From NCBI GenBank assembly GCA_036522895.1, contig DATDEX010000279.1:69793-133792 (forward strand): a DNA stretch of 64,000 nt. Reading direction: 5' to 3'. This DNA is from Candidatus Eiseniibacteriota bacterium. Its GTDB lineage: Bacteria; Eisenbacteria; RBG-16-71-46. Made by a program: the position numbers and the translations under genes. Positions 30,379 to 46,381 of this stretch are shown in pieces (the stretch's first letter is position 1; each line of letters opens with the position of its first letter). The notes under the pieces were generated by a model. The model saw nothing but the letters and a program-made list of their open reading frames with translations, was not told the origin of the DNA and did no database searches.

Positions 30379-30502
30379 AACGATGCGGCATCACATTCGC
30401 GTCCGCCTTCCTACCGGGAAGGACATCGGGGCGCTACGCTTCCCCACGCAGTACACCTGATGCCGCAACCGTTCCACCCGCCCCTTGTCAGGAGGCCTTC
30501 CC

Positions 30503-31201
30503 ATGAAGGCCGATCACCCCATCCCGTACACCGACACCCGCGAGTCCATCGCCTACGCCGAGCTCTTGAAGCTCGCCCACGAGGAGGGCCTCAAGTCCAT
30601 CAGCACCTCGCTCGTGCTTCAACCCAGCGAGGAGAACGGCCGACTCGCCATCGTCAAGGCCGCGGTCGAGACGGAGCGCGGCCACTTCGAAGGCCTCGGC
30701 GATGCCGACCCCGGCAACGTCGATGCCTTCCTCGTTCCGCACCTGATCCGCGTGGCCGAGACCCGGGCCAAGGCCCGCGCCCTCCGTGACGCCGTCAACT
30801 GCGGCGTCGTCTCCTCCGAGGAGTTGGACGACGTCAGCCTGGACCAGGCCTCACGCCCCGGACCGGGTGCTCCCGCACCCCCGTCCTCGCGCCCTGCGAG
30901 GAATGAAGCGCCGCCTGCGCGCCCGCGCGGCAATGGCGGGGCCCGGTCCCCTCGGGGCACCACCGGCAACGGCTCGCCCGAGCCGATGACCGAAGGCCAG
31001 CGCCGGTACCTGTTCCGCATAATGGCGGGGCAGGGCTACCAGCGCGAAGCCGCGGAGAATCGGCTCAAGGAGATCTTCGAGGTCGGCTCGCTCACGGAGA
31101 TCACGAAGACCGCCGCGATGAAGATGATCGACGAGCTGCTCCAGACCTCCGCCCCCGGAAACGGTGGCGGGAATGGACCAGCCTCGCGTCCTCTCCATTA
31201 G
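30503..31201 (+). CDS. Hypothetical two-domain protein. Possible single-strand annealing/DNA-binding partner of the adjacent exonuclease (inference from gene order only).
   Basis: RBS GGAGG before ATG 30503. Structured N-domain, Pro/Gly-rich linker, then conserved C-terminal TEGQRRYLFRIMAGQGY...MIDELL. Confidence 0.5.
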   Translation: MKADHPIPYTDTRESIAYAELLKLAHEEGLKSISTSLVLQPSEENGRLAIVKAAVETERGHFEGLGDADPGNVDAFLVPHLIRVAETRAKARALRDAVNCGVVSSEELDDVSLDQASRPGPGAPAPPSSRPARNEAPPARPRGNGGARSPRGTTGNGSPEPMTEGQRRYLFRIMAGQGYQREAAENRLKEIFEVGSLTEITKTAAMKMIDELLQTSAPGNGGGNGPASRPLH

Positions 31202-32006
31202 CCAGGTCAACGCCTACCTCGGCTGCCCGCTCAAGTACCGCTTCCAGTACGTGGACAAGATCCCACGGCCGTGGCGGGTAGCGGCCATGGCCTTCGGGAC
31301 ATCAGTCCACGCCGCCGTCGAGTGGTTCCACAAGGAACGCCTCGCCGGCCGAAGCCCGGAACTGACGCAAGTCCTCGAGGTCTTCGACGCGGACTGGTAC
31401 GCGCAGAACACGGAGCCGCTCGTCTTTTCGGAACGGGAGTCGAGAGACTCCCTGGCCGAGAAGGGCCGGGCGATGCTCCAGCTCTACGTCGAGTCCAGCA
31501 GCGGCGTGAAGCCGGTCGCGGTCGAACAGCCGTTCGAACTGGATCTCGCCGATCCCGAGACGGGGGAAGTTCTCGGCGTGCGGCTGCGCGGCATCATCGA
31601 TCTCGTGGAGGAGGGGGAGACGCTGGTCGACTTAAAGACGGCCGGCCGGACGCTCGAATCGGGGGGTCTCGAGCGGCACCTGCAGCTGTCGACCTACGCC
31701 CTCGCCTTCTTCCTCCTCCACGGTTCCATCCCCAAGCTCCGGCTGGACATGCTGCTCAAGACCGCCAAACCGCGGCTGGAGCGGCATCCCACCACCCGGA
31801 GCCTCGAGGATCTCGGCTGGACGGCCCGCCTCATCCGTGAGGTCTCACTGGCCATTCAGACCGAGCACTTCTTCCCAAACCCGAGCTGGCGCTGCACCGA
31901 GTGCGAGTACTTCGCCCACTGCCAACAGTGGCGCGGGACCTGGCCCAGCGAGCAGCTCATGCAGCTAGGTGACGGGGGAGGTGTCGGCGAGTCCGTGGGC
32001 GCGTAG
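31164..32006 (+). CDS. PD-(D/E)xK nuclease of the Cas4/RecB (phage-type exonuclease) family with a 1+3 Cys cluster
   Basis: N-terminal CPLKYRF. GIIDLVEEGETLVDLKT (D-E-K). QLSTYALA (QxxxY). C-terminal CTECEYFAHC. Confidence 0.75.
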   Translation: MAGMDQPRVLSISQVNAYLGCPLKYRFQYVDKIPRPWRVAAMAFGTSVHAAVEWFHKERLAGRSPELTQVLEVFDADWYAQNTEPLVFSERESRDSLAEKGRAMLQLYVESSSGVKPVAVEQPFELDLADPETGEVLGVRLRGIIDLVEEGETLVDLKTAGRTLESGGLERHLQLSTYALAFFLLHGSIPKLRLDMLLKTAKPRLERHPTTRSLEDLGWTARLIREVSLAIQTEHFFPNPSWRCTECEYFAHCQQWRGTWPSEQLMQLGDGGGVGESVGA

Positions 32007-32186
32007 GACCGATCAGCGGTCGATCGCGTGCTATCGGGGGCCACGGACGGCTGTTGAAGCCGAAACGTCCACGGCTCGTCGCACCTTCTCCCGTCAGTTG
32101 TTCCATCGCTCATTCCATTCAACGGGGCTCCACGCGTTCGCGCCTGGGGCCCTCTTTTCTACCCCAGCCCCTGCAGAGAGGCACCT

Positions 32187-32609
32187 GTGTATGTCTGCGA
32201 ACTGACGAAGCGGAAGTACCGCGGCAAGCAGCCGCGCCAGATCCGCGGACCGGACGATGTGTGTGCCGTGATTGGGCGGAAGCTCCATAGGGAACAACGC
32301 GAGCACTTTCTCGTCCTGCTCCTGAATGCCCGCCACGAGGTTATGGCCAAGGAGACCATCTCCATTGGCAGCTTGAACGCGTCGGTGGTTCATCCGCGCG
32401 AGGTGTTCAAACCCGCCATCCTCGCCTCGGCGGCCTCGATCGTGCTGGTTCACAACCACCCGTCCGGCGACCCCGAGCCAAGCGACGAGGATCTCTCAAT
32501 CACCAAGCGCCTCGTCGAGGCCGGTGAGCTGCTCGGCATCGGCGTGCTCGACCATGTCCTCATCGCCAGCCGGGGCGTCGTCTCGTTCCGCGCACGGCAG
32601 CTACTGTGA
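32187..32609 (+). CDS. RadC-like JAB/MPN domain protein
   Basis: HNHPSGDPEPSDEDLSITKRL (JAMM motif). Confidence 0.85.
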   Translation: MYVCELTKRKYRGKQPRQIRGPDDVCAVIGRKLHREQREHFLVLLLNARHEVMAKETISIGSLNASVVHPREVFKPAILASAASIVLVHNHPSGDPEPSDEDLSITKRLVEAGELLGIGVLDHVLIASRGVVSFRARQLL

Positions 32610-32636
32610 CCCCTCACTGAAGAAAGGAATGTTGTC

Positions 32637-33368
32637 ATGCCTGCAACACTTGTTGTCCACCGCGGCGGCTGGGATGCCACCAAGGCTGACCTCGCCAGCG
32701 TCCTCGTGCCCGAGTCCACCGAGTCGTACCACCCCGTCCCGTACCATCGCTTCATCGAGGAGGTTGAGCTGCACATCCCGCGCTTCGGACTCGCCGTTCG
32801 CTCGTCGCAGTTCGCGCTCGCGCGGGAGGGAGGCCAGATGTTCGGCGTCCTCACCTGCTCGAACGGTACGCCCGATCGCGACTACGCCCTCGCCATCGGC
32901 GTGCGGAACAGCTACGACCGCAGCCTGGCCGTCGGACTGACGCTCGGCTCGCGGGTGTTCTGCTGTGACAACCTCGCCTTCTCGGGCGAGGTGACGATGC
33001 ACCGGAAGCACACGCTGAACGTCTTCCGCGATCTGCCCGACTTGATCTACCGGATGCTGTCGCAGGTGGCGGCCATGCGGCAGCGCAGCGACGGCGAAAT
33101 CGCGGCGATGAAGGTTCGCGAGCTGCCGCCGGCTCATGCACATCACCTGATGGTCGAGGCGATCAAGGCGAACGTTGCGCCCGCCTCGCGTCTGCCGAAG
33201 GTGATCGAGGCGTGGGATGAGCCGAAGCACGAGGAGTTCGCGCCGCGCACGGCCTGGTCCCTCTTCAATGCCTTCACCGAGATCCAGAAGGCGGGGGCGC
33301 CTCGGGCACAGATGGAGGGGAGCCTTCGGCTCAGTTCGCTCTTTCGGAAGGAGTTGTCACTCTACTGA
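32637..33368 (+). CDS. DUF932-like (phage/plasmid-related) protein
   Basis: Overall similarity to the TIGR03299/DUF932 pattern, judged by eye. Low certainty. Confidence 0.45.
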   Translation: MPATLVVHRGGWDATKADLASVLVPESTESYHPVPYHRFIEEVELHIPRFGLAVRSSQFALAREGGQMFGVLTCSNGTPDRDYALAIGVRNSYDRSLAVGLTLGSRVFCCDNLAFSGEVTMHRKHTLNVFRDLPDLIYRMLSQVAAMRQRSDGEIAAMKVRELPPAHAHHLMVEAIKANVAPASRLPKVIEAWDEPKHEEFAPRTAWSLFNAFTEIQKAGAPRAQMEGSLRLSSLFRKELSLY

Positions 33369-33677
33369 TTCAATCTCCGGGGCCGTCCGATTCTCGACGG
33401 CCCCGTCTTCATGTCGACGCGTGCAAGAGAAGACGGAGAAGCGGGGGTGGGGCGGCGCCCTTGCTCATGACCGTACGTTGCAGTACTTCACCGCGAGTGC
33501 CACATCGACGAACGTTTCCATTCGGATTCGCTCGCCGTCTGCGGGGCTCTGATTCAGTCGCGCGACCTCCGTGCCTGCAGGAGCGAGCGCCCCGACCCGT
33601 GGTCGCGTGGCACCCCGCACGGGCCGGTGCGTCGCAAGTCGTTGAACCAGCGGGAAGAAGCAGCTATCTTCGGCCCC

Positions 33678-34868
33678 ATGAAACCCATCAACCAGCGGAC
33701 TACTTCGGGCGAGCGACTACGAATCGCGGGGCTCTTCGCGGGGATTGGTGGCATTGAGCTCGGGCTGCACCGAGCCGGCCACGTGACCGCCCTCTTGTGC
33801 GAGTCGGATCCCGGTGCTTCCAAGGTCTTGGCCGATCGATTCTCGCTTGAGGTGGCACCAGACGTGCGCGACCTTGAGTCGCTCGGCGATGTCGACTTGG
33901 TCACCGCTGGGTTCCCCTGCCAGGACCTCAGCCAAGCGGGTATGACCGCTGGCATTCGGGGGAGCAACTCCGGTCTCGTCGATCACGTCTTCCGGCTCCT
34001 CGACCAGCGGAAGCGCGGTCCACGCTGGCTGCTCCTGGAAAACGTCTCGTTCATGCTCCACCTCGATCGTGGCCGCGGCATGCGCCACCTCGTCGACGAA
34101 CTCGAGAAGCGCCGTTTTCGCTGGGCGTACCGCGTAGTGGACACGCGGGCCTTCGGGTTGCCGCAGCGGCGCCACCGAGTCATCCTGCTCGCATCCCGCA
34201 GCGAGGACCCGCGCGGGATCCTGTTCGGCCAGGATTCAAGAGTAACAGAACCCACATTCTCCACGGAGCTCTGGTGTGGATTCTACTGGACGGAGGGACT
34301 TCGCGGACTCGGGTGGGCAGTCGACTCGGTGCCCACGCTCAAGGGCGGTTCGACGATTGGCATTCCATCCCCGCCAGCGATCTGGGATCCCGAGAGCGGT
34401 GAGATCTCCACCCCCGAGATCCGGGATGCCGAGCGGCTGCAGGGATTCGAGGCCGACTGGACGCTCCCGGCTCTTCAAGTTCCCGGTGTCCGACCAGGAC
34501 ACCGGTGGAAGCTGGTCGGGAACGCGGTGAGCGTGCCCGTGGCGAAGTGGGTGGGGGAGCGTTTGGCCTACCCAGAGCCGTTCGATGGCGCTCGCACCCT
34601 CGAGGAACTGTCGCCGGGCGTGGCGTGGCCCAAGGCCGCGTGGGGCGCGAAGGGGCGTGTCTTCTCGGTCTCGGTCTCCACCTGGCCCGTGCGCATCCGC
34701 ACCCCGCATCTGTCTCGGTTCGTGCGGTTCCCGCTGGCGCCACTGTCGTACCGAGCGGCATCGGGCTTCAAGAGTCGAATGGACGTGAGCGGACTCAACT
34801 TTGAAGACGCCTTCCGTCGCGCGATCGCGCGATACGTGAAGCGCGGCCTTCGGGTGGCCGTCGCCTAA
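33678..34868 (+). CDS. DNA (cytosine-5)-methyltransferase 1
   Basis: Motif I LFAGIGG, IV PCQDLS, VI ENV, VIII QRRHRVIL, X GNAV. Confidence 0.9.
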   Translation: MKPINQRTTSGERLRIAGLFAGIGGIELGLHRAGHVTALLCESDPGASKVLADRFSLEVAPDVRDLESLGDVDLVTAGFPCQDLSQAGMTAGIRGSNSGLVDHVFRLLDQRKRGPRWLLLENVSFMLHLDRGRGMRHLVDELEKRRFRWAYRVVDTRAFGLPQRRHRVILLASRSEDPRGILFGQDSRVTEPTFSTELWCGFYWTEGLRGLGWAVDSVPTLKGGSTIGIPSPPAIWDPESGEISTPEIRDAERLQGFEADWTLPALQVPGVRPGHRWKLVGNAVSVPVAKWVGERLAYPEPFDGARTLEELSPGVAWPKAAWGAKGRVFSVSVSTWPVRIRTPHLSRFVRFPLAPLSYRAASGFKSRMDVSGLNFEDAFRRAIARYVKRGLRVAVA

Positions 34869-35662
34869 TGGTCGAACCTCCCCCCAAGCCCATCCGTACC
34901 CTTGCCGATGTCTTGCGCGAATCGGAGCCGAGACCTCTTCCCGGCCCGGAGAGAGTGCGCGGCGAGAAAAACACGTACTCGACTCGCTTTGCTAACAACA
35001 TGGCTCGGCTGGTTGCCTTCGGACTGCGTGAGCAGTTCGGGGACTTCTTCCGCGGTATCCTGCCGCACGACGAGGGGGGCCTGGAGTCGACGGCGTGGGG
35101 CTCGAGGGGCACCGGCAGGCTCGACGTCAACTATTCGACGCCTGAACTGGGGCTCGGACTCGGGATCTCACTGAAGTCGGTTCACATCCCGGAGGAGAAA
35201 TCGGGACGCGCTCGGCGATACACGCACAACATGAAGCGCAACGACGAGGAGCTACGGGTCGAGTCGATCAGCTACCACACCCGGCAACCGTACGCGGTCA
35301 TGGTCGCGGTGCTCTTCCTGCCGTACGACTCCTGCACCGACGGGACGGACATCTCCTCGTTCGGCGCCTGGGCCGAGTACCTCCACGAGCTGGTCGGACG
35401 CACGGATCCAGGAGACGACGCGGCACTCTTTGAACGTGGATTCATCGGTCTCTACGATCCCGATCCAACCACGAACCGAATGGAGTTCTTCGACATCGAG
35501 CAGCCGCCTCCACGCAAGGGCCGGCCGCAGCGCTTACTTCCCTTCTCGGGATTCCTGAGCGAGGTCAAGAAGACGTACGACCGCCGGAACCACAAGGACT
35601 TCAAATGGGCAGACGATGTCCCGCTTGACGAGGTCCCACCCCCATACGGCGAGCCGACCTGA
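34868..35662 (+). CDS. Putative Type II restriction endonuclease partnering methyltransferase 1 (by position)
   Basis: Start overlaps the methyltransferase stop (taATGg). Loose PD-(D/E)xK pattern GRLDV...PELGLGLGISLKS. It lies between a C5-methyltransferase and Vsr. Confidence 0.45.
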   Translation: MVEPPPKPIRTLADVLRESEPRPLPGPERVRGEKNTYSTRFANNMARLVAFGLREQFGDFFRGILPHDEGGLESTAWGSRGTGRLDVNYSTPELGLGLGISLKSVHIPEEKSGRARRYTHNMKRNDEELRVESISYHTRQPYAVMVAVLFLPYDSCTDGTDISSFGAWAEYLHELVGRTDPGDDAALFERGFIGLYDPDPTTNRMEFFDIEQPPPRKGRPQRLLPFSGFLSEVKKTYDRRNHKDFKWADDVPLDEVPPPYGEPT

Positions 35663-35690
35663 AGCCTCCTCGTTGTCGGTTCGTCGGCGG

Positions 35691-36074
35691 ATGCAGGCCA
35701 CCCCCAGACGCGACACACAGTGCGAACTCGCGCTGCGCTCAGTGCTCCATCGGCTCGGCCTACGCTTTCGTGTTGATCGCAGGTTGCCTGATGCGCGGCG
35801 AAGAGCCGACCTGACTTTCGTCCGCGCCAGAGTGGTCGTGTTCGTCGACGGTTGCTTCTGGCACGGCTGCCCTCAACACGCATCATGGCCAAAGTCGAAT
35901 GCGGAGTGGTGGCGCGCCAAGATTGAGATGAACCGCCGGCGGGACATCGAGACGAGCCGCAAACTTCGACGGGCGGGTTGGAAGGTCGTTCGAGTGTGGG
36001 AACACGAAGACCCGCACCGGGCATCGCAACGGGTGGTCGCGGCCATTGGGGAGACAAGCTCGCCAAGACGCTAA
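35691..36074 (+). CDS. vsr: Very short patch repair endonuclease (Vsr)
   Basis: VVFVDGCFWHGCP plus the downstream W/H pattern typical of Vsr. Confidence 0.85.
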   Translation: MQATPRRDTQCELALRSVLHRLGLRFRVDRRLPDARRRADLTFVRARVVVFVDGCFWHGCPQHASWPKSNAEWWRAKIEMNRRRDIETSRKLRRAGWKVVRVWEHEDPHRASQRVVAAIGETSSPRR

Positions 36075-36288
36075 GGGCGATCTCACCAACAACGGAAGGC
36101 CGCCCGTGAGACCTGAGCTGGTCATAGCGTGCGTTGGCGAAGCGGTCCTCTCGGTGGAGGCTTCGATGCGCCTGGCCACGGGCAGAGGTAGGTACTTGGC
36201 GGGAGTGGCAGATGTCGCGCTCGCGGGAAGAGCTTACACTTGGCGGACGACCTGCCTCCAAGACAACTCGAATGGAAGGAGGAGTGCT

Positions 36289-36542
36289 CAGTGAATGGGA
36301 CCGACTATCAGATCGCACTGCTGCTGGCGACACTGTGCCTACGGCTTTCCTCGCTGGCCGCGGGACTGTTTCTGGTTCGGGGCGGCGTTCGCGTTCTGAT
36401 GCTCGATTCGACCGGACACGGCCTCGGATCGCGAGAGTGGCTATCCAGGTGCTGGCTTGGAGCGATGCTCGGTCTTGCACTAGTCGTCGGAGGCGCGATC
36501 CTAGTCTTCGGCAAAGGGTTGGGAGCTCTGGTTCACAGCTAA
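36289..36542 (+). CDS. Possible small 2-TM membrane protein
   Basis: Hydrophobic ORF (36240..36542 frame), preferred over the Arg-rich overlapping frame. GTG start guessed. Confidence 0.3.
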
Positions 36543-36577
36543 ACCCGCCCACCAAGGGCGCCAGCGTAGGGGGGGAC

Positions 36578-37333
36578 GTGCAGTTAACCGGCAGAGAATC
36601 TGTGGTTCGCGGGTTCATCGACGGATTGATTCCGCCCAGGTTGCGGCCGGGCAGCTTTGATCTCACGGTCGGTAGGATCGTCGTTCGGGGCGAGGAGCGA
36701 CACGACCCAGTCGTGATTCAACCGCAACAGACATTTCTCATCGAATCGGAACAGACCGTGACGGTCCCGATTGGGTACGTGGGGTACGCAATGCCGAAGA
36801 CGAGCCTTTGCAACGATGGGATCCTCGTCCTCAACACAGGGCTCGTCGACCCAGGCTACAACGGCAAGCTCTCGACGATCGCCATCAACTTCTCCGACAG
36901 CGACCAACGGATCCGGCGGGATACTGCGTTTCTGCGGCTGGTCTTTCACCAGCTTACGGGAGCCGATGCAGATCGCGAAGACGCACATACGCAAACCGCG
37001 ACCTTGGACGACCTCAAGTCCCGATCACGACATATCAGTGCGTCCTTCCTCGATGTGCCGGGCCAGGCCGACCGCATCATGCGTGAGCTGACCAACGATG
37101 TCATGGACAGACAACGCAACGCGATCTTGCTCCTCATCAGCACAATTGGCTTCCTATTTGTAATGTGGAACTTGGGGTCGTTCTTCCTCCTATCTCGACA
37201 GACCAACGCGATCGCAGATCGCACTGCGCAAACCGGGTCGCGGGAGCTCGGGGCACTTGAGGAGCGGGTGAAACAGCTCGATGAACGCGTGGCGAGGCTA
37301 CAAACCCTTGTCACACCGCCAAAAGCGCGATAG
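36578..37333 (+). CDS. dCTP deaminase/dUTPase-fold protein with a C-terminal TM helix and coiled coil
   Basis: LTGRESVVRGFIDGLIPPRLRP...DLTVG aligns with the Dcd N-terminus. GLVDPGYNGKLSTIAINFSD matches the Dcd/dUTPase motif (HRIDPGWSG / IDSDYRGE). TM segment AILLLISTIGFLFVMWNLGSFFLL, then heptad-rich tail. GTG start at 36578; the upstream ORF part is junk. Confidence 0.7.
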   Translation: MQLTGRESVVRGFIDGLIPPRLRPGSFDLTVGRIVVRGEERHDPVVIQPQQTFLIESEQTVTVPIGYVGYAMPKTSLCNDGILVLNTGLVDPGYNGKLSTIAINFSDSDQRIRRDTAFLRLVFHQLTGADADREDAHTQTATLDDLKSRSRHISASFLDVPGQADRIMRELTNDVMDRQRNAILLLISTIGFLFVMWNLGSFFLLSRQTNAIADRTAQTGSRELGALEERVKQLDERVARLQTLVTPPKAR

Positions 37334-37348
37334 CATCAAAGGATTCTT

Positions 37349-38251
37349 ATGATTCGATTGACCGTTTCTTCCGCCGACGAAGTCCTAGCGTGGCTCTCAC
37401 ATGAGCTCGTCCACCACGGGCGTGAAGTCCAGCCCCGGGGACGCCGCACCTTGGAGATAGCGCCTTGCGCGTTCACGCTCTCGAACCCCCGGGCACGCAA
37501 GATTGCCAACACACACCGACGTTGGAACGAGGCGCTGGCCGTCGGTGAACTGGCATGGCATCTGGCCGGCTCGGACGATCTCGATGCCATCGCGTATTAC
37601 GCGAAGGCGTGGCGCGGCTTCTCGGACGACGGCCGCACCATCCATGGAAGCTGCTATGGCCGCAAGATCTTCGGCGGCGGGGCGGGTGCTAGTCAGTGGG
37701 ACCGCGTCCGCGCTGAACTTCAGCACGATCCTGATTCGAGACGGGCACTGCTCGCAATTGCAGATCCGCATCATGACCTGAGCGCTTCGAGCAAGGATGT
37801 GCCGTGCCTGACGGCGTTGCAGTTTTTGATTCGTGACGGAGCGCTACATGCCGTCGCCTTCATGCGCAGTAATGACCTCATCTGGGGGCTTTGCTACGAC
37901 CTCTACCTGCTCACCATGCTTCAAGAACTGATGGCCTGCGAGCTCGGCGTGGGACTAGGCCAGTACACGCACGTCGCCACCTCGATGCATGTCTATGAGC
38001 AGCACTTGGAGATGGTGAGGCGAATCGCCGACTCGAACCCGCCTAGGATTGCTCCGCCAATGGAGCCTCTCGGCCAGCCCAAGCAGAAGGAGGAGTTCAT
38101 CCGGCTCGAGCGTGTCTTGAGGGAGGGTGGCAATGCGACGACCGAAGGGTTGGATCCTTTCTGGAAGGGGCTTGCGAAGCCGCTACTCCGACTGGCCGAA
38201 AGACGTCGCGCGCGGCTGCACCCGACGCCGACGCACGAGATAACCGTCTGA
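37349..38251 (+). CDS. Thymidylate synthase / dCMP (dUMP) hydroxymethylase family protein
   Basis: ELAWHLAG, GSCYG, DPDSRRALL, DVPCLTALQF...MRSNDLIWGLCYDLYLL, THVATSMHVYEQH all align to ThyA conserved blocks including the catalytic Cys. Confidence 0.8.
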   Translation: MIRLTVSSADEVLAWLSHELVHHGREVQPRGRRTLEIAPCAFTLSNPRARKIANTHRRWNEALAVGELAWHLAGSDDLDAIAYYAKAWRGFSDDGRTIHGSCYGRKIFGGGAGASQWDRVRAELQHDPDSRRALLAIADPHHDLSASSKDVPCLTALQFLIRDGALHAVAFMRSNDLIWGLCYDLYLLTMLQELMACELGVGLGQYTHVATSMHVYEQHLEMVRRIADSNPPRIAPPMEPLGQPKQKEEFIRLERVLREGGNATTEGLDPFWKGLAKPLLRLAERRRARLHPTPTHEITV

Positions 38252-38273
38252 GCGTGACGCCCGGCGGCGGAGA

Positions 38274-38717
38274 TTGCAGCACGCGCACGGGCGGCGCCAT
38301 CTGAGGTGGGACACGTCCTTGAGTGACATCAGCGTTGAAGCCTTAGGGCAGCTACGGTTGGCGGCATGGCGCGCAAGAGACCACGCGCGCACCTACAGCG
38401 GTATCAAGGTCGGTGCGGCTGTCTTGACCGCGGCGGGCGAGGTATTCGCCGGGTGCAATCTCGAGCATCGTTTCCGGGCCCATGATATTCACGCCGAGAC
38501 GAACGCAATCGGCTCCTTCGTCGCGGGCAGCGTGTCGACCGTCGTCGCGGTGTTGGTGGCATCAGAGGAAGCGCTCTTTACGCCGTGTGGCGGGTGCATG
38601 GATTGGATCTTCGAGCATGGTGGAGCGGATTGCGTGGTCTACGTCATGAGCTCCCGGGATACGGCGCCGATGACGTGGCGCGCCTCCGAGCTCATGCCGC
38701 ATTACCCGCATCAGTAA
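38274..38717 (+). CDS. Cytidine/deoxycytidylate deaminase (CDA-fold) protein
   Basis: HAETNAI (H-A-E) and TPCGGCMDW (PC-x-x-C) zinc-ligand motifs. Upstream of the HAE block: ...SGIKVGAAVL, as seen upstream of the H-A-E zinc motif in CDA-fold enzymes. Confidence 0.75.
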   Translation: MQHAHGRRHLRWDTSLSDISVEALGQLRLAAWRARDHARTYSGIKVGAAVLTAAGEVFAGCNLEHRFRAHDIHAETNAIGSFVAGSVSTVVAVLVASEEALFTPCGGCMDWIFEHGGADCVVYVMSSRDTAPMTWRASELMPHYPHQ

Positions 38718-38759
38718 CCGGGTTGGTGGGCTGACGTTGGTGCGATCCGGCATCATTCC

Positions 38760-38937
38760 GGGTAATGGGCGCCTCGACCACCTCGGGTACCTGAGCATGG
38801 GCTCGACGTCTATCTACGCCCGCATGACGGGCCAACACCGGGTTGCGGTGTTCCGCGAGCTCGCCCGCTCGCCGTGGATCGTCCAGCCCGGAACGGGATT
38901 CTCCGCAGTTCGACAACTTGAACGGAAGTCGCCATGA
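38760..38937 (+). pseudogene. 3'-terminal fragment (~50 codons) of a tyrosine recombinase gene. About 85% nucleotide identity to the 3' end of the intact gene at 44883..45725.
   Basis: Encodes ...GSTSIYARMTGQHRVAVFRELARSPWIVQPG, versus intact ...RSTSIYARITDRHRVAVFRELARSPWIVQPG. Both copies end ...gtcgccATGaa. Confidence 0.65.
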
Positions 38938-38977
38938 ACGCACGCCGTCTGCCGCTCATGATCCGGAGCTTGGCACC

Positions 38978-40177
38978 ATGGTCCGTTTGAAGATCGCTGA
39001 ACTCTTTGCGGGTATTGGTGGTGTCGCGGGCGGGCTCCTGGACGCCGGCGGCTTCGATCCCGTGCTGCTTATCGATCGTGAGCCGCTGGCAGCGAAGGTC
39101 TTCAATGCCAACTTCCCGACCTACGCGCCCCGCTACCACACGCGATCTGTCAGCGCCCGACTCACCGGGAGGGAGCTGCTGGAGCAGGCCGGGGGCGAGA
39201 TCGACGGCATTCTCGGCTGCCCGCCATGTCAAGGATACAGCGCCGCCGGCCTTCGTGACCCGGACGACGCGCGCAATCAGCTCCTGGACGAGATGCGGCG
39301 ACTCATCGCCTCGATCGAGCCGCTCTTCTTCCTCATCGAGAATGTCCCCAGCCTCAGGAGTTCCCATCAGTTTGAACGGTTCGGCCAGTCGCTCGAATCG
39401 AAGTACGAGATTGCGGCGCAAGTCCTCAACGCGGCCGAGTTCGGCATCCCACAACTTCGGCGCAGGCTCGTGGTGTTGGGCGTCCACCGGTGCGCGAAAG
39501 TATCGCCGTCCTTTCCGACGCCGACGCACGGCGGCAAGGGACGCGTCTTCGACTACTGCAGTGGCAGGTATCTCCGACCCAGCTCACCTGCCGGTCGTCA
39601 GGCGTTTCAAGTCGATCCCGGACTTCATTTCGCACGCCGCAAGATGGTGACGCTCTCAGCAGCCCTTGACGACTTGCCTGCCAACCCACCCCTTCATCTT
39701 GGTCGAGGCCTGTCTGGCGACGCTCCACTCGAGTACGCAGGACCGGCGCGGACCACCTTCCAGCGCCGAATGCGGCGAGAATCTCGCCGGCCGACGCACC
39801 ATGTTGCCTGGCGACATCGATCGACCCTCGTCAAGCGTCTGGCGCGGATCGCTCCCGGCGACTGCCCACCAGGCACGGGCGGTAGGTCGCGCAACGCGGA
39901 GTACTTCAGCCAGGCCTACGCTCGGCTTCACCCAGCCGGTCTGGCCCGCACCGTAACGACGAACTTTCACAATCCAGGATCCGGCCGCTTCACTCACTAT
40001 GCGGTGCCGCGCGCCTTGACGCTGCGAGAGGCGATGCGGCTTCAAAGCTTCCCGGACAGCTTCGTCCTGCCGGAAATGCACCTGAGTGAAGCTGAGCGGC
40101 TTATCGGCAACGCCTTCCCCCGGCGCTTAGCTGAAGTCCTTGGTCGACACATCGCGCGGCTGCTCAGCGGGAGGTAG
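38978..40177 (+). CDS. DNA (cytosine-5)-methyltransferase 2
   Basis: LFAGIGG, PPCQGYS, ENV, QLRRRLVV motifs. Confidence 0.9.
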   Translation: MVRLKIAELFAGIGGVAGGLLDAGGFDPVLLIDREPLAAKVFNANFPTYAPRYHTRSVSARLTGRELLEQAGGEIDGILGCPPCQGYSAAGLRDPDDARNQLLDEMRRLIASIEPLFFLIENVPSLRSSHQFERFGQSLESKYEIAAQVLNAAEFGIPQLRRRLVVLGVHRCAKVSPSFPTPTHGGKGRVFDYCSGRYLRPSSPAGRQAFQVDPGLHFARRKMVTLSAALDDLPANPPLHLGRGLSGDAPLEYAGPARTTFQRRMRRESRRPTHHVAWRHRSTLVKRLARIAPGDCPPGTGGRSRNAEYFSQAYARLHPAGLARTVTTNFHNPGSGRFTHYAVPRALTLREAMRLQSFPDSFVLPEMHLSEAERLIGNAFPRRLAEVLGRHIARLLSGR

Positions 40178-42391
40178 TGTCGTCGGCTCCGGCCCGGCAT
40201 CGCCCAGCGCTTCCCCGCGCCGAACGGTCAGTTTGGCCATTCGCTCAAGCTGCTTCCTGAGCCTCTGAAGAGACACGTACTCTATCGTTGTGCGTGGAAC
40301 TGCCATGCCCCGCAGCCCCTTCATGGCACTCAGGTTCGCGGCGATGGCTTGCTGCAATTCCGAAATAAGCTTGTGACCGAGCACCTTGCACTTCTCGTGT
40401 GCCTCGTAGATCACGAAGGGTATGAGTCGCGGCAGCCGGCGCCGGCTCATGATGTTGTGGTCTTGATCAAGGGCCCATTTGGATGAGTGGACCCCACGAA
40501 CGATCAGGTCGGCGACGTGCATCACCCGTGCGGATCGTTGTTCGGCGCCTCGCGTGCGTATCGAGTCGAGAAACTCGAACCGTGGGAACCGAATCTGTGG
40601 GCTGCCGCCGGGACGCCCCAGGTAGAACATGCCAAAGTCCGCGTACTCGCACATGCGCACGTACTCGTCCTCGGCAATGTCCCGACCGTCGAACCACGGC
40701 CGCTCGCCGGAGCCCGAGTGGTTGTAGCGCTTCACCTGTTCCGCCAGCTGCTCTTCGAAGAAGCGTCGCCAATCGCCAGGCTCTCGGACGCGGTGGACCC
40801 GGAAGAGGCTCGTCACCATCGCGGTGAAGGGCCGGACGATCACGCAGGTGGAGTAGTACTGCGCCCGGTCAGGCACCGGGGACAGCGAGCACAAGAGCCG
40901 AGTCATCGCGACCGAGTCGCTGATCAGACCCATCCGTTCGAGTTCCCAGTGCGGATCGATCGCCTGACCGAAACGCAGCTCCGATCCCCGCTGGATGTAC
41001 CAGTTGAGAATCCGCGAAAATGTTCGCAGCTGCGTCGATTTCACCGCACCCGCGAACACACGGCGGTCAGAGTCCATCACGTGGCGCAGGATCTTGTAGC
41101 TCAGCCGGATCCCTTCGCGGACCATTTCTCCATAGGATGTCCGATTCGTGTAATTCTGCAGCTCGCGGCTCTGCGGAGACACGGCTCCGTCGCGCAGCAG
41201 CACGTGCGGCTTGGGCAACGCATCGCCGCCTTGTACCGCGTGGGCACCATAGGGCTGCGCCATGCCCGAGAGCAGCGCCTCATCGATCCGGTACTGGACG
41301 ACATCGAGCGCCGTTTTCCTCAGGTGTTCGAACTCCCCGTCGTCGAGGTCCTGGAACCACGGTCGCGAAATGATCATGCCCTTGTTGCCTGGATCCTCCA
41401 GCGCTGCGCGCGTGATCGGAATACCGTGATAGGGCGACGGAAACTTTCCGGGAAAGCTGGGAGGAAGGTCGACATATCCGGCACCGTTATTGAACCACAG
41501 AACCAAACGATCGTCGTCGGCGTAGGCCGCGGCAGGCATGCCTCGCACTTCACCTGGGTGGCTCGATCCGTCGGTACCCGCGATGATCAGTTGTGGCTGG
41601 CGGTCGGGTTCCGGCGTTACCGTCAGGGAGTGTAGGAATGTCGGCCCAAACACGTGGCCTGCGAGCTCGGCCGCCACGGCAGTCCAATCGTCAGCGCCCA
41701 CGTGTCGTTCCACGTCGCGATGGTCGACCGGTACCGGCTTCGCCTCGATCTCCGGAAGATCGGGGATCCTCCAGACCGCCGGGTTGATCCCCAGTTCACC
41801 GTGCACAAAGCGCGCAAAGTCCTGGAGCTGACGTTCCACCTTCTGCCGGTGGGCCTCATCGTTGCCGATGCTCGCGTCGCGCACATCGGCAACGTCCTCA
41901 TCGAGACGATGCGCTATGTCCTTCAGCATGCGAAGGATCAGTTCGCGCGGCTCCTCCTGCAGCAGGCCCTCGGCCGCCTGGCGCATGACGGCCGCCGAGC
42001 GACCCTCGAACTGTTCAACGGTATCGACGTAATAGGCCAGCGCCGTGGTTGGTCCGAGCTCCCACAAGGCCTGATTGAGATCAGGCTGGGAGAGCGGCGT
42101 CAGCGGCGACACGCGTGGCGCCACGGTGTACCGGGCGGCGGCACCGTCGGTTGACCCGTCAGACAGCAGGAAGCCGCGGGCTACCAACTTGGCCACAGTC
42201 CGGTGGTAGGTCGGGAGCGTCGCGGTATCGCCTATACCTCGAGGCTGGACCACTCCCGACTCGTCCTCAACGTGCGCCGAGTCCTTGGCGTGCTCCCAGA
42301 TGTCACGGATGGTCCGCTTGTCCTCCGGCGCATCCTGCAGGTAGCGGACGATCCAAGCGTCGCGTTCGTAAATGCTGATCTGCGTACTCAC
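40127..42391 (-). CDS. Large protein with NurA-like nuclease domain (C-terminal ~480 aa) and an N-terminal extension
   Basis: LIIAGTDGSSHPG matches the NurA motif I (hhAhDGS). The 3' end overlaps methyltransferase 2 convergently. It is adjacent and co-directional with the HerA-like ATPase. Confidence 0.5.
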   Translation of the reverse strand: MSTQISIYERDAWIVRYLQDAPEDKRTIRDIWEHAKDSAHVEDESGVVQPRGIGDTATLPTYHRTVAKLVARGFLLSDGSTDGAAARYTVAPRVSPLTPLSQPDLNQALWELGPTTALAYYVDTVEQFEGRSAAVMRQAAEGLLQEEPRELILRMLKDIAHRLDEDVADVRDASIGNDEAHRQKVERQLQDFARFVHGELGINPAVWRIPDLPEIEAKPVPVDHRDVERHVGADDWTAVAAELAGHVFGPTFLHSLTVTPEPDRQPQLIIAGTDGSSHPGEVRGMPAAAYADDDRLVLWFNNGAGYVDLPPSFPGKFPSPYHGIPITRAALEDPGNKGMIISRPWFQDLDDGEFEHLRKTALDVVQYRIDEALLSGMAQPYGAHAVQGGDALPKPHVLLRDGAVSPQSRELQNYTNRTSYGEMVREGIRLSYKILRHVMDSDRRVFAGAVKSTQLRTFSRILNWYIQRGSELRFGQAIDPHWELERMGLISDSVAMTRLLCSLSPVPDRAQYYSTCVIVRPFTAMVTSLFRVHRVREPGDWRRFFEEQLAEQVKRYNHSGSGERPWFDGRDIAEDEYVRMCEYADFGMFYLGRPGGSPQIRFPRFEFLDSIRTRGAEQRSARVMHVADLIVRGVHSSKWALDQDHNIMSRRRLPRLIPFVIYEAHEKCKVLGHKLISELQQAIAANLSAMKGLRGMAVPRTTIEYVSLQRLRKQLERMAKLTVRRGEALGDAGPEPTTLPPAEQPRDVSTKDFS

Positions 42392-44061
42392 GAACGTGGC
42401 TGCCCATCGCGCGTGCTGGTCGGAATCTCGCGTCGAGCGGTCCAGCCTCGTTTGGCCAAGTCCGCGAAAATGTCAGGCGTCGCGCCGCCGACCGGCGTTC
42501 GCCGCCGACGGATGTCGACCAGGGTGGCGTGCTTGACCGTCTCGGACACGCCGCTCAGCACGCACGTGCCGATCGGCGCCCTGGTCAGCCGATGAATCAT
42601 CGCCTCCGGGGCATCCGAAAACACGCCGCGCAGGGATTCGAGCTGATCAGGCTCGATGGCGAAGATGAACCGCGTAAGCAGACGCTTCAGCAGCGGCCGA
42701 TCGAGGTCGGCGGGGCTCTGACTGGTGAGGATGAGGCCGATCCGGTAGTGGCGCCCGATGCGCGCGATCTCGCGCAGGACCTGTGTGGTGACCACCTTGT
42801 CATCGTTGGGGGCGATGAGGTGTGCCTCGTCCATCGACAAGACCACGAAGGGAATCTTTCGGGCGCGCGCCAGTCGCTGGATATCGCGCGCCACGGCCGC
42901 GGCGATAAGCCGCAAGTCCGACACCGAGAGGCCACGGCAGTCGATGTTGATAATTCTGCCGGGCGTGAGCTCCTGCTCCCAATCGAAGGGTGCGCCGATG
43001 TACGGGATGTTTTCCAGGCTGCGCGCTCGGAGCATCGCCGGGCGGAAAGTTTGTGCTTTCATCTCGAGCGCCGGGGCCAGCTCTTCGATCTTGGCGATCA
43101 GCGCGTCGACGCCGAACTCTTTGCCACCGCGCAGCACCTGATTGAGCAGCGACTCGTGGGCGAACTGAACCAGTGTTTCGATATTCGTGCCCTTGTTGAT
43201 GGCGGGGATCGAATCGATGATTTCGTCCGGCTGGAGAGCGCTAAGCGGCAGGCTGAAGCCGTCGCCTGGCCGAACATTGGTGCCACCGAGGCTCGTGGTC
43301 GCATCAACCATCTCACCCAAGGGGTCGATGTTGATCTGCGGGACGCCATGACTCCAGAGCTCCTCGGCCACGACGCCGCGGCCATATGACTTGCCGCGTC
43401 CGATTCCACCGCAGAAGAAGATGTGCGTTTGCACCACATCGCGGCGCAATCGCACGGTCACGTCGGGCAATCCATGAATCGTTCCCACTTCAAGGCCGCT
43501 CTGCGAGTCGGGCGCAAAATTGAGCGCCTGCGCGATCAGCCCCGGCTGCACGACCACCACGGGACTGCCCGAGAGGGGGAGGGTCTCGACAGACTCGATT
43601 CGGTCGAGGCTTCCGTCCAATTTGAAGACCACTTCCTCGAGCGGATCGGCCGAGGCGGCGCGATAGATGACGGTCGACTGGCCCTCTGGCGCGTACCTGG
43701 TCTCAAACGGGATCACGTCGCTCACCGTCGAGCTCAGTGCGTCCTCATGCGGGTTCTGCTCCCACACGCCTTCGACCCGAATGAGCGTGAGGACGCTCGG
43801 GCCATTAATCTGCTTTCCCCGGACTCCCAACACCCGGCCGGCGGTCGTGTCTTGCCCGGGAAGAAGCCGGAACAGCACCTTGTCCAGGCTCGGAGACTCG
43901 CGCTCGCAGATGACCCGGCCGATCACGACGTCATTCTGATCCGCCTCGGTCCCGACGAGAGGCGGCTGATCGAACTCGGCTTCCTCCTGCCCCCTTGCGC
44001 TCATGGTGCCATCCTTCATAGCATCTCCTTCGATTCGGTGCGCGGGTCCTTCGGTGAACAT
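42388..44061 (-). CDS. HerA/FtsK-superfamily ATPase (HAS-barrel + RecA-like core)
   Basis: Walker A GGIGRGKS. Walker B VVLSMDEAH. LILTSQSP (TQxP). N-terminal HAS-barrel-like VVIGRVICERESP...RVLGVRGK. Start placed at MFTEGP; the listed 44157 start adds an Arg/Pro-rich N-terminus. Confidence 0.7.
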   Translation of the reverse strand: MFTEGPAHRIEGDAMKDGTMSARGQEEAEFDQPPLVGTEADQNDVVIGRVICERESPSLDKVLFRLLPGQDTTAGRVLGVRGKQINGPSVLTLIRVEGVWEQNPHEDALSSTVSDVIPFETRYAPEGQSTVIYRAASADPLEEVVFKLDGSLDRIESVETLPLSGSPVVVVQPGLIAQALNFAPDSQSGLEVGTIHGLPDVTVRLRRDVVQTHIFFCGGIGRGKSYGRGVVAEELWSHGVPQINIDPLGEMVDATTSLGGTNVRPGDGFSLPLSALQPDEIIDSIPAINKGTNIETLVQFAHESLLNQVLRGGKEFGVDALIAKIEELAPALEMKAQTFRPAMLRARSLENIPYIGAPFDWEQELTPGRIINIDCRGLSVSDLRLIAAAVARDIQRLARARKIPFVVLSMDEAHLIAPNDDKVVTTQVLREIARIGRHYRIGLILTSQSPADLDRPLLKRLLTRFIFAIEPDQLESLRGVFSDAPEAMIHRLTRAPIGTCVLSGVSETVKHATLVDIRRRRTPVGGATPDIFADLAKRGWTARREIPTSTRDGQPRS

Positions 44062-44361
44062 GACTTGCTGTGGGGGAGGAGCCGGCGCGGGTACGCCGGC
44101 TCCGACCCCCGTTCCCCCCGGTCGGGAGCTAGGCCGCCTGACGGCGGACCTGCGCACCCGGAGCCTGCTTCTTCACGAGATCGATGCTGTGGTCACAGTC
44201 CGCCTCGTTGACGTAGCCGTCCGTGGAGCGACAGATCTCCCGGCCGTTGGGGGACATGAACCGCCAGTACCACTGGCGGTCCCGACCCGGAAACTTCTCG
44301 AAGTAGTACATCCGCGCGATCACCTCCTTCCGTTGAGGGATCCGGAGCCGCTGACAGCAAC

Positions 44362-44850
44362 GTGTTATTCATTTCGCGGTTCCGAGAAACACGAAATGAT
44401 TACCGCTGCCGTGCGTCGGCTACAAGTCAGGTATTTGTGAATTCGCGCGACAACCTCACTCCCGAGCAGCGGGTACGGGCGATGCGGGCGGTGCGGTCGA
44501 CGTCCTCGGCCGAGGCCACCGTCCGGGACGCGCTCCGGGCTCTAAAGGTGCGGATTGGTAGAGGGCTCACCTTGCCGGGCCGTCCGGACTTTGTTCTCCC
44601 CGACCAACGGATCGCCCTCTTCGTCAACGGCTGCTTTTGGCACGCCCACGGATGTCGGCCGCTGTACCCGGTCGCGAACCGTTCCTACTGGAAGCAGAAG
44701 CTCGCGTCGAATGTCCGGCGCGACCGTCGAGTTCGCCGCCAACTGAATAGGGCAGGGTGGAGCGTCGTCGTCTTGTGGGAGTGCAAGCTCTCGAAGCAGG
44801 ACCCCGCCGCCTCCGTCCTGCGGGTGATGAAGAGAGCTCGAAGGTATTGA
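44362..44850 (+). CDS. Vsr-family endonuclease paralogue with Asn in place of the catalytic Asp
   Basis: IALFVNGCFWHAHGC read directly from cgtcaacggctgcttttggcac. Otherwise Vsr-like. Confidence 0.75.
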   Translation: MLFISRFRETRNDYRCRASATSQVFVNSRDNLTPEQRVRAMRAVRSTSSAEATVRDALRALKVRIGRGLTLPGRPDFVLPDQRIALFVNGCFWHAHGCRPLYPVANRSYWKQKLASNVRRDRRVRRQLNRAGWSVVVLWECKLSKQDPAASVLRVMKRARRY

Positions 44851-44882
44851 CGGGCGGTGATGCCGGAGCTACTTTGAAATGA

Positions 44883-45725
44883 GTGCGCCGTTTAGCAGAA
44901 GCGCGCACTCCAAGGCTCCGCGGCACGATACCCCCAATCCTTGCTGCGTTTGAGCCGATCCCCGAGTCGCTGAAGGGCCCGGGGCTGCCCGTCGCCCGAC
45001 ACAAAGACGCCCGGTTTGCGGGCGATCGCTACCCACTGCGCGCTTCTGCTATTACGCGCAGTGACGTCGGGGCGGCGATCCTAGATCTCCCCACCTTGTC
45101 CATCCTCCCGCACTCCCATCAGCGCCCACCTCGCTACCTCACGCAGGGTGAAGTTCAGCGCTTCTTCTCGGTGATCGCCGACCCGCGCGATCGGGCGTTA
45201 TTCGTGCTGATGTACCACCACGGCCTGCGCGTGGGGGAGGTCCTGCTGTTAACTCGCGGCGACCTCGACCTCACTCGCGGACGACTGCTCGTCCGCCGCC
45301 TCAAGGGCGGCGTCTGGAGCGAGCAGATCCTCTTCGCAGGGACGATTCAGCTGCTCCGTGCCCATTTGGCCCGGACTGCCGGAGGGCCCGAGGCGCCGCT
45401 CTTTGCCGGCCGAGACGGACCGCTCCGCTGCCGGCAGATCCAGCTGCGGTTCGTTCGATACCGCCAGCGTGCTGGGCTCTCCGCACACCTGACGACTCAC
45501 TCGCTGCGGCATTCGATCGCCACCCACCTGCTCGACGCGGGCGTCAACCTCGAGTTCGTCCAGGACCACCTCGGCCACCAGAGCATCCGCTCGACGTCGA
45601 TCTATGCCCGCATCACCGACCGGCACCGCGTCGCCGTGTTTCGCGAGCTCGCGCGCTCCCCGTGGATCGTCCAGCCCGGTAGCGAAGTTCCCGCCGTCCA
45701 ACCACCAGAAACGAGGTCGCCATGA
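44883..45725 (+). CDS. Tyrosine recombinase (short form; catalytic domain)
   Basis: LRHSIATHLLDAGVNLEFVQDHLGHQSIRSTSIYARI. Confidence 0.8.
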   Translation: MRRLAEARTPRLRGTIPPILAAFEPIPESLKGPGLPVARHKDARFAGDRYPLRASAITRSDVGAAILDLPTLSILPHSHQRPPRYLTQGEVQRFFSVIADPRDRALFVLMYHHGLRVGEVLLLTRGDLDLTRGRLLVRRLKGGVWSEQILFAGTIQLLRAHLARTAGGPEAPLFAGRDGPLRCRQIQLRFVRYRQRAGLSAHLTTHSLRHSIATHLLDAGVNLEFVQDHLGHQSIRSTSIYARITDRHRVAVFRELARSPWIVQPGSEVPAVQPPETRSP

Positions 45726-46381
45726 ATACCCGCCACGTGTTTCTGATCCTCGGGATTGCCGTCGCCGCTGGATGCTCGAAGAACAGCAGCAGCCCCACAA
45801 CTCCTGGTGGTGGAGGCGGTAGCGGCAATCCGACGCTCAACGTGGCCGCCGATTCCATCCGGATGCTGACCGACAACAGCTGCACGGTGCACGCCACGGC
45901 CACGGATCCGAGCGGCTTTCAACTGACCTTTGCGTACGTGGCGAAGGGCGGAACCGTGGCGGCGGGAAGCTCGACGTCGACGAGTGCGATCTTCACCCCC
46001 ACGCGGATCGGGAACGATTCGGTCCTCGTCACCGTCAGCAATGGGCACGGGGGCCAGGCCTCCGCCACGCTGCTCGTCTACGCCGTGGACCGGTTTGCGC
46101 CTGGGCACAGCCAGAGCTTGGGCTGCGCGTTCAACTTCACGCCCGCCGAGAGCCTCTTCGTCCTCGATTGCACTGTCTGTGTTTCCATCGGCGCCGGGGG
46201 GTGTCAGGTCACGGGCGTCACCAGTTTTCCCCCGGATGTGCTCCCGCCCGGTGTGCCCTACACCTTCTGGCCCGCAGACGATCCGGGGCAGACCTGCAAG
46301 GACTTCCTCCAGAGCTGGGACATCACCGTCCGGCGGCCGCTGCCAGACGGGCGGATTTACCGCTTCGCGGGACTGCGCTGA
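45722..46381 (+). CDS. Lipoprotein (signal peptide + lipobox AAGCS), Ig-like
   Basis: LILGIAVAAGCSKNSSS. Start overlaps the integrase stop (gccATGAat). Confidence 0.6.
   Translation: MNTRHVFLILGIAVAAGCSKNSSSPTTPGGGGGSGNPTLNVAADSIRMLTDNSCTVHATATDPSGFQLTFAYVAKGGTVAAGSSTSTSAIFTPTRIGNDSVLVTVSNGHGGQASATLLVYAVDRFAPGHSQSLGCAFNFTPAESLFVLDCTVCVSIGAGGCQVTGVTSFPPDVLPPGVPYTFWPADDPGQTCKDFLQSWDITVRRPLPDGRIYRFAGLR

Follow-up and report, generated by a model that had tools for sequence, protein, structure and literature searches.

A C5-methyltransferase, a HerA-family ATPase and a predicted NurA-fold protein form a candidate restriction–modification cassette in Eisenbacteria

Introduction

TdpABC is a phosphorothioate-based defence reported from thermophiles (An et al., Nat Chem Biol 2025). 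It has been described as a three-gene phosphorothioate restriction–modification (R-M) defence built on TdpAB, in which TdpC alone makes the modification (PMC12914056). Archaea and bacteria (S. solfataricus, T. kodakarensis, and D. radiodurans) also possess a HerA–NurA complex for DNA-end resection; in T. kodakarensis, ATP hydrolysis moves double-stranded DNA through the HerA tunnel to the NurA dimer, where both strands are cut, the NurA substitution D49A abolishes activity, and the destruction of foreign DNA has been raised by the authors as a possible role (PMC12977600). The present analysis concerns a 64,000-nucleotide (nt) stretch of DNA, referred to here as the window, from a Candidatus Eiseniibacteriota bacterium (GenBank assembly GCA_036522895.1, contig DATDEX010000279.1, positions 69,793 to 133,792 of the forward strand), in which the gene of a C5-cytosine DNA methyltransferase (MTase) stands beside those of a HerA-family ATPase and a 754-amino-acid (aa) nuclease candidate. 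The initial annotation of this DNA had proposed these genes, together with one for a Vsr very-short-patch-repair endonuclease, as a candidate restriction-type system.

Among known systems, TdpABC is the nearest in logic and in fold; TdpA and TdpB, the ATPase and nuclease of PDB 8wet, appear to be structural relatives of the HerA-family and 754-aa proteins. The two systems differ in their modification, which is backbone phosphorothioation by TdpC in the former, whereas the only modification gene of the cassette encodes a C5-MTase; no TdpC-type or phosphorothioate-synthesis family was found among the cassette proteins in Pfam, PADLOC, and NCBIfam scans. TdpB comprises 358 aa, in contrast to the 754 aa of the window nuclease with its extra N-terminal winged helix and helical linker, and PDB profile searches from the window proteins reach neither TdpA nor TdpB, leaving no detectable sequence similarity.

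In structure, the nearest known system is the archaeal HerA–NurA pair. Compared with the HerA–NurA end-resection complexes, the window nuclease has extra N-terminal domains and large insertions and lacks a Pfam NurA match, and the pair is linked to a C5-MTase, and often to Vsr, instead of Mre11–Rad50, and occurs sporadically on mobile elements. No linkage to Mre11 or Rad50 was found, either here or in those related loci for which gene calls existed or whole-locus open reading frame (ORF) scans were made; the neighbours in all of them are C5-MTase and Vsr genes.

Several other HerA systems resemble the cassette in part. SIR2–HerA (Nezha) and HerA–DUF4297 likewise combine a HerA-family hexamer with one effector gene, and the HerA of the window has the structural relatives 8j4u and 9c1m as well as weak HerA matches in PADLOC. 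Their effectors, however, are a SIR2 NADase or a DUF4297 nuclease without a methyltransferase, and both systems were rejected on gene content, the partner in the window having no Pfam or PADLOC match and a NurA-like fold. MADS, the methylation-associated defence system, was also rejected, as only the HerA ATPase domain matches mad8 (E 7e-12), with no other mad1–mad8 match in the cassette proteins, and the Dnd/HerA “capture system” and the BREX-related HerA system in the literature are other HerA systems.

The cassette resembles R-M systems in general in having a methyltransferase, a nuclease, an NTPase motor, convergently arranged R and M genes, and a Vsr accessory. CglI/NgoAVII are examples of ATP-dependent R-M systems with a C5-methyltransferase. 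Known systems differ from the cassette in using superfamily 2 helicase-type or McrB-type motors with PD-(D/E)XK, phospholipase D, or HNH nucleases; a methylation-based restriction enzyme made up of a HerA ring translocase and a NurA/RNase H-fold nuclease is, as far as we know, undescribed. No description of the trio of C5-MTase, HerA, and NurA was found in a literature search, which was incomplete, and an earlier description is possible. The initial annotation knew of no named defence system with this pairing, and none was found; it did not name TdpABC, a close functional analogue.

Conservation of the three-gene module

The cassette core (38978–44019), as established by ORF and profile searches, consists of a complete C5-MTase gene convergent on a two-gene minus-strand operon. 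For the analysis of linkage, 73 independent related loci were gathered from genomes and metagenomes, and their ORFs were scanned with iteratively built hidden Markov models of the C5-MTase, Vsr, HerA, and the nuclease; the 38 loci showing at least 1.4 kb on both sides were counted. In 37 of the 38, the HerA–nuclease pair has a C5-MTase gene no more than 2 kb away. Nineteen of these 37 MTase genes are convergent and downstream, as in the window, 15 are co-directional and upstream, and three are co-directional and downstream. Spacings of 0–50 nt or overlapping 3' ends are frequent; convergent overlaps of the MTase and nuclease genes recur in loci L002 (51 nt) and L005 (30 nt). As a genome has few C5-MTase genes, the pair would adjoin one by chance in roughly well under 1% of cases, and most loci have no other nuclease candidate beside the MTase.

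Wherever gene calls are available, a DUF87/HerA gene directly precedes the gene of the 754-aa family, its stop codon overlapping the start of the latter; the overlap is 4–11 nt in the relatives. In the window, the HerA stop codon overlaps the GTG start of the 754-aa gene by 4 nt (GTGA), which indicates translational coupling.

A total of 46 complete systems, forming 36 clusters at 90% identity, were found in Eisenbacteria, Bacteroidota, Chloroflexota, Cyanobacteria, Actinomycetota, Deinococcota, Proteobacteria, and Bacillota, with named loci including Eisenbacteria, Saprospiraceae, Dehalococcoidia, Viridilinea, Phormidesmis, Solirubrobacterales, Deinococcales, Proteobacteria, and Paenibacillus; matches at the protein level alone add Gemmatimonadetes and Poribacteria by name. 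In the main MTase clade, the more two systems differ in their MTases, the more they tend to differ in HerA and the nuclease as well (Spearman 0.5–0.7 for pairwise divergence), so that the three genes are largely co-inherited. The common MTase has been replaced at least five times by other C5-MTase lineages, and always by a C5 enzyme; judged by these replacements, the constant of the module is C5 methylation chemistry and not one MTase lineage. The C5-MTase, HerA, and the winged-helix–NurA-fold protein have thus been shown to form a conserved, co-inherited module in many phyla, and adjacency together with co-divergence provides the genetic linkage of a DNA methyltransferase to a nuclease that characterizes R-M systems. 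The initial annotation had allowed that the pair might turn out to be linked everywhere to housekeeping repair loci without methyltransferases; the opposite was found.

The methyltransferase and Vsr

The MTase of the cassette (MTase2) matches Pfam PF00145 at E 1.4e-47 over profile positions 2–322 of 324, TIGR00675 with 136.5 bits, and PADLOC MTase_II at E 3e-65, and its best PDB matches are C5-MTases. Its translation contains FAGIGG, PPCQ, ENV, QLRRR, and GNAFP, thus all canonical motifs.

The Vsr ORF (44362–44850) reaches 107.9 bits against TIGR00632, above the curated cutoff of 97.85, and therefore belongs to the Vsr family. Vsr is an optional accessory of the module: 20 of the 38 loci have a Vsr gene at a distance of up to 2.5 kb from the HerA–nuclease pair, and in 13 of these it comes right after the nuclease gene, in the same orientation. 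Where present, it would repair the T:G mismatches that arise from deamination of 5-methylcytosine (5mC) and so limit 5mC-driven mutation. In one clade, an HhH-GPD DNA glycosylase gene is located between the C5-MTase and HerA genes (L003, 5721–6272; also L004 and L057), and this enzyme may be a functional substitute for Vsr in T:G mismatch repair.

The HerA-family ATPase

The HerA-like ORF (42388–44157) matches Pfam DUF87 at E 9.7e-10 and gives weak HerA matches in PADLOC and NCBIfam. The homologues and a public gene call place the true start at M47 (44019), yielding a protein of 543 aa. Its DUF87 central ATPase carries a Walker A motif (GGIGRGKS) and a Walker B motif (VLSMDEAH), in addition to TSQSP, and the fold comprises an N-terminal HAS barrel and a RecA-like core. 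A profile built from 33 homologues reached S. solfataricus HerA in the PDB at 1.5e-15, and 9c1m and 8j4u were recovered as relatives in the structure search. The ATPase is a bona fide HerA.

The 754-aa nuclease candidate

The 754-aa protein is 100% identical to VI504_10930 of a Candidatus Eisenbacteria metagenome-assembled genome (MAG) and has no match in Pfam, NCBIfam, PADLOC, or PHROGs. The Pfam NurA model (PF09376) matches neither this protein nor any of 61 close relatives, even at E<=1, and no NurA structure was reached from it in PDB profile searches with close and broad alignments. Two distant family members show sub-threshold Pfam NurA matches (E 0.03–0.09), and the NurA match of protein P0229 covers the motif, the D(G/A)S of the family being aligned to the start of the NurA model.

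The AlphaFold model computed from a 61-member family alignment is confident, with a predicted local distance difference test score of 84 and a predicted template modelling score of 0.84. It comprises a PadR/Fur-like winged helix (residues ~1–95), a helical linker (~114–200), and a NurA-fold, RNase H-like domain (~245–700). Foldseek ranks TM1739 first and Tn5 transposase, which also has an RNase H-like fold, second, though with weak statistics. The PDB profile search with the broad alignment confirmed the N-terminal Fur/PadR-like winged helix; its matches to designer PPR proteins were discarded as repeat artefacts.

Across 48 sequences with 17–49% identity to the window protein (mean column identity 25%), D274 (of DGS), D401-G402 (RDG), K451, R520, and E606 (PRxE) are invariant or nearly so, and H665-E666 (AHE) is kept in most. 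The predicted fold is RNase H-like and of the NurA type, and the protein has both a D(G/A)S motif at the N-terminal side of this domain and a conserved acidic “DG” motif downstream. An Asp after the first strand and a second Asp in “DG” would presumably fit the active-site layout of NurA/RNase H. On the basis of the model, the 754-aa protein is best described as a fold-level relative of NurA outside the Pfam NurA family.

A word-indexed search yielded 78 proteins of this family, and about 231 clusters (at 50% identity) were found at E<=0.001 among 1.84 billion representative proteins, including a distant clade with E values of 1e-33 to 1e-17. As so few clusters are spread over about ten phyla, their distribution indicates that the family is a rare, horizontally moving system. 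No homologue was found among PLSDB plasmids or INPHARED phages, and IMG/VR contains one relative, L081 (UViG_3300036850_000316, 1–10848). The pair in L081 is flanked by three or four C5-MTase ORFs and Vsr, an unusually dense cytosine-methylase cluster. With no model in Pfam, PADLOC 2.0, NCBIfam, or PHROGs, the family is missed by current annotation and defence-finder pipelines, and the family alignments of this analysis could seed one.

Proposed function and alternative explanations

Considering the sequences and the predicted structure together, the cassette is fairly likely to be an ATP-dependent R-M system with a HerA–NurA-type machine as its restriction enzyme. The two restriction-side proteins have the HerA-translocase and NurA-nuclease folds, respectively, with the Walker motifs and the conserved acidic and His residues intact, and the restriction-type system of C5-MTase, HerA, NurA-type nuclease, and Vsr that had been put forward for this locus is supported by the 37/38 linkage and by the firm HerA membership.

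In such a system, the target sites of the MTase in host DNA would carry 5mC as a mark. The 754-aa protein, as a dimer, would assemble with the HerA hexamer (HerA6–nuclease2) as in archaeal HerA–NurA and TdpAB, and ATP-driven threading of DNA into the NurA-like active sites would lead to the processive degradation of unmethylated foreign DNA, while 5mC on self DNA would block loading, translocation, or cleavage. The N-terminal winged helix may read unmethylated sites; it is equally possible that the modified strand stalls the motor or the nuclease, as proposed for phosphorothioate in TdpAB. Winged helices that read the methylation state of DNA exist, as in the C-terminal domain of DpnI. A methylation-dependent (Type IV) reading was rejected, as the constantly adjacent MTase would be suicidal.

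A more far-reaching claim, for which the chances seem evenly balanced, is that the cassette is the founding example of an unrecognised R-M class, in which a HerA ring and a winged-helix–NurA-fold nuclease processively destroy DNA lacking C5-cytosine methylation; in this base-methylation counterpart of the phosphorothioate-based TdpABC, the ring motor–nuclease would sense 5mC. If true, a HerA hexamer with a NurA-fold nuclease would be a new enzymatic architecture in R-M, an archaeal DNA-end-resection machine would be tied to 5mC-based discrimination of self from non-self, and the Tdp principle of a modification restraining a HerA–NurA-type destroyer would extend beyond phosphorothioates. It would also raise the concrete question of how a translocase–nuclease reads 5mC.

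Several observations weigh against the R-M assignment. The pair in Dulcicalothrix desertica PCC 7102 (L022), both flanks of which are visible, has no MTase within 7 kb and adjoins a UvrD-like helicase and a PD-(D/E)XK protein. In the cultured Paenibacillus sedimenti (L021; GCA_014534655.1, JACVVD010000010.1, around 167–171 kb), the MTase is followed by a DUF4928 Type II restriction endonuclease (PADLOC REase_II, 3e-44) and Vsr, and this MTase, as part of a complete conventional R-M system, need not be cognate to the HerA–NurA-like pair. These two loci leave room for a pair that acts without a dedicated MTase. Furthermore, canonical HerA–NurA works in DNA repair, from DNA ends, and the 754-aa protein has no sequence-profile link to NurA, its assignment being derived from the predicted structure and its catalytic residues being inferred. 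Lastly, the winged helix shows no specific covariation with the target-recognition domain of the MTase: the partial correlation is 0.18 over all loci and 0.03 within the main MTase clade, where 151 of 500 permutations were as high. Within the nuclease, variation is greatest in the winged helix and linker, where mean pairwise identity is 35–36%, compared with 47% for the NurA core and 59% for HerA; with no covariation beyond shared ancestry, the winged helix is not claimed as the specificity element.

The foremost alternative is that the HerA–NurA-like pair acts by itself in defence or in the degradation of DNA ends, much as SIR2–HerA or HerA–DUF4297 do, and merely co-localises with C5 R-M or Dcm–Vsr genes in defence islands, methylation having no control role. 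Such a module would agree with the two exceptional loci, with the missing covariation of winged helix and target-recognition domain, and with the association of HerA with several effectors in stand-alone defence systems, including its structural relatives 9c1m and 8j4u. It is nevertheless improbable, as the nearly constant adjacency, often within 50 nt or with overlapping 3' ends, goes far beyond defence-island clustering, the MTase co-diverges with the pair, and the partner is always a C5-MTase and never another defence gene. The idea that the genes form a methylation-plus-repair package, in which HerA–NurA processes Vsr nicks or 5mC-deamination lesions as an extended very-short-patch repair without restriction, can draw on the frequency and position of the Vsr genes, on the glycosylase gene in L003, and on the known repair role of HerA–NurA proteins, but is highly improbable, since about half of the loci lack Vsr but almost none the MTase, the module, unlike housekeeping repair, has a sporadic, horizontal distribution and is found on mobile elements, and Dcm–Vsr functions in other bacteria without a HerA–NurA-like partner.

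Gene map of the cassette

The features of the cassette are collected in Table 1. The gene map of the initial annotation was correct apart from the starts of the HerA and recombinase genes and a DUF1508 gene that it lacked. The convergence of the MTase gene with the operon and their 3' overlap were borne out, the DGS motif of the 754-aa protein is present in its translation as IIAGTDGSS, and GGIGRGKS and (M)DEAH were found in HerA as described, while the reported TQSP is in fact TSQSP. Vsr had been said to follow immediately; the DUF1508 gene intervenes, and Vsr2 is on the strand opposite to HerA. Of the Pfam profiles suggested for verification, DUF87 and DNA_methylase matched and Vsr was recovered by TIGR00632, but NurA (PF09376) did not match the 754-aa protein. 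The DUF1508 gene had no tblastn match in any related locus and is probably outside the system. A scan of the cassette for promoters and terminators gave nothing above shuffled expectation, and the cassette has no Rfam match.

Table 1. Features of the cassette and its borders (window coordinates).
Feature	Position	Strand	Evidence or remark
Probable 3' remnant of a paralogous short tyrosine-recombinase gene (last ~57 codons and ~10 nt downstream)	38776..38946	+	alignments; left edge of the cassette
C5-cytosine DNA methyltransferase (MTase2), 399 aa; proposed modification (self-marking) part	38978..40177	+	PF00145, TIGR00675, PADLOC, PDB
51-nt overlap where the methyltransferase and nuclease genes converge (3' ends)	40127..40177	.	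ORF coordinates
754-aa proposed restriction nuclease (winged helix, helical linker, NurA fold)	40127..42391	-	predicted structure
HerA-family ATPase, predicted hexameric translocase, 543 aa	42388..44019	-	DUF87, motifs; ORF reaches 44157
DUF1508 (YegP-like) gene, 60 aa, upstream of HerA on the same strand	44129..44311	-	PF07411, E 8.7e-12
Vsr (Vsr2) very-short-patch-repair endonuclease, 137 aa	44437..44850	+	TIGR00632; ORF starts at 44362
Short tyrosine recombinase, 209 aa, catalytic domain only; right end of the mobile element	45096..45725	+	PF00589, homologue lengths

The surrounding mobile element

The surroundings of the cassette are related to mobility and defence, comprising a second R-M module and backbone genes, and the module is cargo in the variable region of an Eisenbacteria mobile element, integrated in the genome, with a short tyrosine recombinase at its end. 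Upstream of both R-M modules (~30330–33368) lie genes for ParB_N, a 232-aa ORF, PD-(D/E)XK, RadC, and DUF932 proteins. A second Eisenbacteria genome (L080; GCA_020847735.1, 569–3933) shares this backbone (window 30371–33333) at 69–77% nucleotide identity, as well as the recombinase module (window 44881–45676) at 73%, the conserved part beginning at ~44881. The gap between backbone and recombinase holds 4.8 kb of unrelated genes in L080 versus 11.5 kb in the window, and these shared ends with different cargo place the cassette in the variable cargo region (~33369–44880) of a mobile-element family.

The recombinase matches only PF00589. Matches to the Xer and invertase profiles of NCBIfam start only at residue ~76 of the 280-aa ORF, and those to Xer only at profile position ~87–97, so that an N-terminal core-binding (SAM-like) domain is lacking. 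More than 1476 homologues of ~200–215 aa were found at E<=1e-10, with the catalytic domain only, and a public gene call of 209 aa (P0346) shows 100% identity; the 280-aa ORF therefore extends too far and is not a truncated Xer. The recombinase is of the short FimB-like type and not a classical Xer. Members of the family (P0346–P0465) are 63–82% identical across soil metagenomes and MAGs labelled as Eisenbacteria, Acidobacteria, and Bathyarchaeia, and the gene often stands directly before one for a secreted Ig-like-repeat protein. Such conservation in different lineages suggests that the element is widely mobile.

The longest direct repeat in the window is formed by the left edge of the cassette and the recombinase 3' end, 38776–38946 versus 45564–45734, with 137 of 169 positions (81%) identical in a gapped local alignment and 78% identity over 171 nt by blastn (E 2.8e-35). 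The reading frame of the left copy agrees with that of the recombinase C-terminus and takes in the STSIYAR region of the catalytic Tyr; the ATGA stop/start junction and the opening codons of the next gene are preserved in it. The two copies share the terminal sequence GTCGCCATGAA. The initial annotation had described this repeat as ~150 bp at ~85% identity, bracketing the cassette together with an intact recombinase at 44883–45725, and had taken it to suggest site-specific insertion or cassette exchange. The repeat was reproduced by alignment, with the shared end as described, although it is longer and less similar than stated, and the recombinase is present, but more likely at 45096–45725 (209 aa). 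With the cassette in a variable cargo region of a mobile-element family, cassette exchange is plausible in a general sense, but the repeat does not demonstrate it.

That the cassette is a discrete integrative element, inserted at the 3' end of the recombinase gene and duplicating that end as an att site, seems rather unlikely. Two same-orientation copies with a common end at the stop codon, in a region that varies between related elements, would fit such an event. The copies are, however, just 78–81% identical, and the left one is closer (83.6%) to a recombinase on another contig (L078) than to the resident gene; integration, moreover, duplicates a short core and not 170 nt of diverged coding sequence, and no empty site was found, all 14 contigs with an identical nuclease sharing one arrangement. 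Given the closer match to L078 and the very many paralogues of the family, the left copy looks like a decayed second recombinase and not like a target duplication, probably a paralogous short recombinase left by tandem accretion or by recombination between related elements.

Neighbouring modules and the rest of the window

The second, conventional-looking R-M module (33678–36074, + strand) begins with a C5-MTase (PADLOC MTase_II PDLC03324, E 7e-139), the stop of which overlaps the start of a 264-aa ORF (34868–35662), followed by an overlapping Vsr gene (35616–36074). The 264-aa ORF has no match in Pfam, NCBIfam, PADLOC, PHROGs, or PDB sequences and is therefore a candidate novel Type II restriction endonuclease.

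Three nucleotide-metabolism genes (36578–38717, + strand) lie between the two R-M modules. The first encodes a dCTP-deaminase/dUTPase-like protein that apparently carries a hydrophobic, transmembrane-like segment at the C-terminus as well as a coiled coil, the second a thymidylate-synthase homologue that best matches phage thymidylate-synthase-like families (phrog_5131, 3.7e-56), and the third a cytidine-deaminase-like protein. None of the three has a PADLOC match, and the genes could form a pyrimidine-modifying, 5-methyl-dC-sanitising, or nucleotide-depleting module.

Elsewhere in the window, a 149-nt direct repeat occurs at 10680 and 11995 (91% identical), and three repeats spaced by 225 nt and 67–74% identical (26169–26706) lie inside a 1351-aa ORF (25399–29454), where they presumably represent repeated protein domains. 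The region 59970–63308 contains tRNA-Ser(CGA), tRNA-Ser(GGA), tRNA-Ala(CGC), and a small signal recognition particle RNA, and the GC content rises to ~70% beyond 60 kb.

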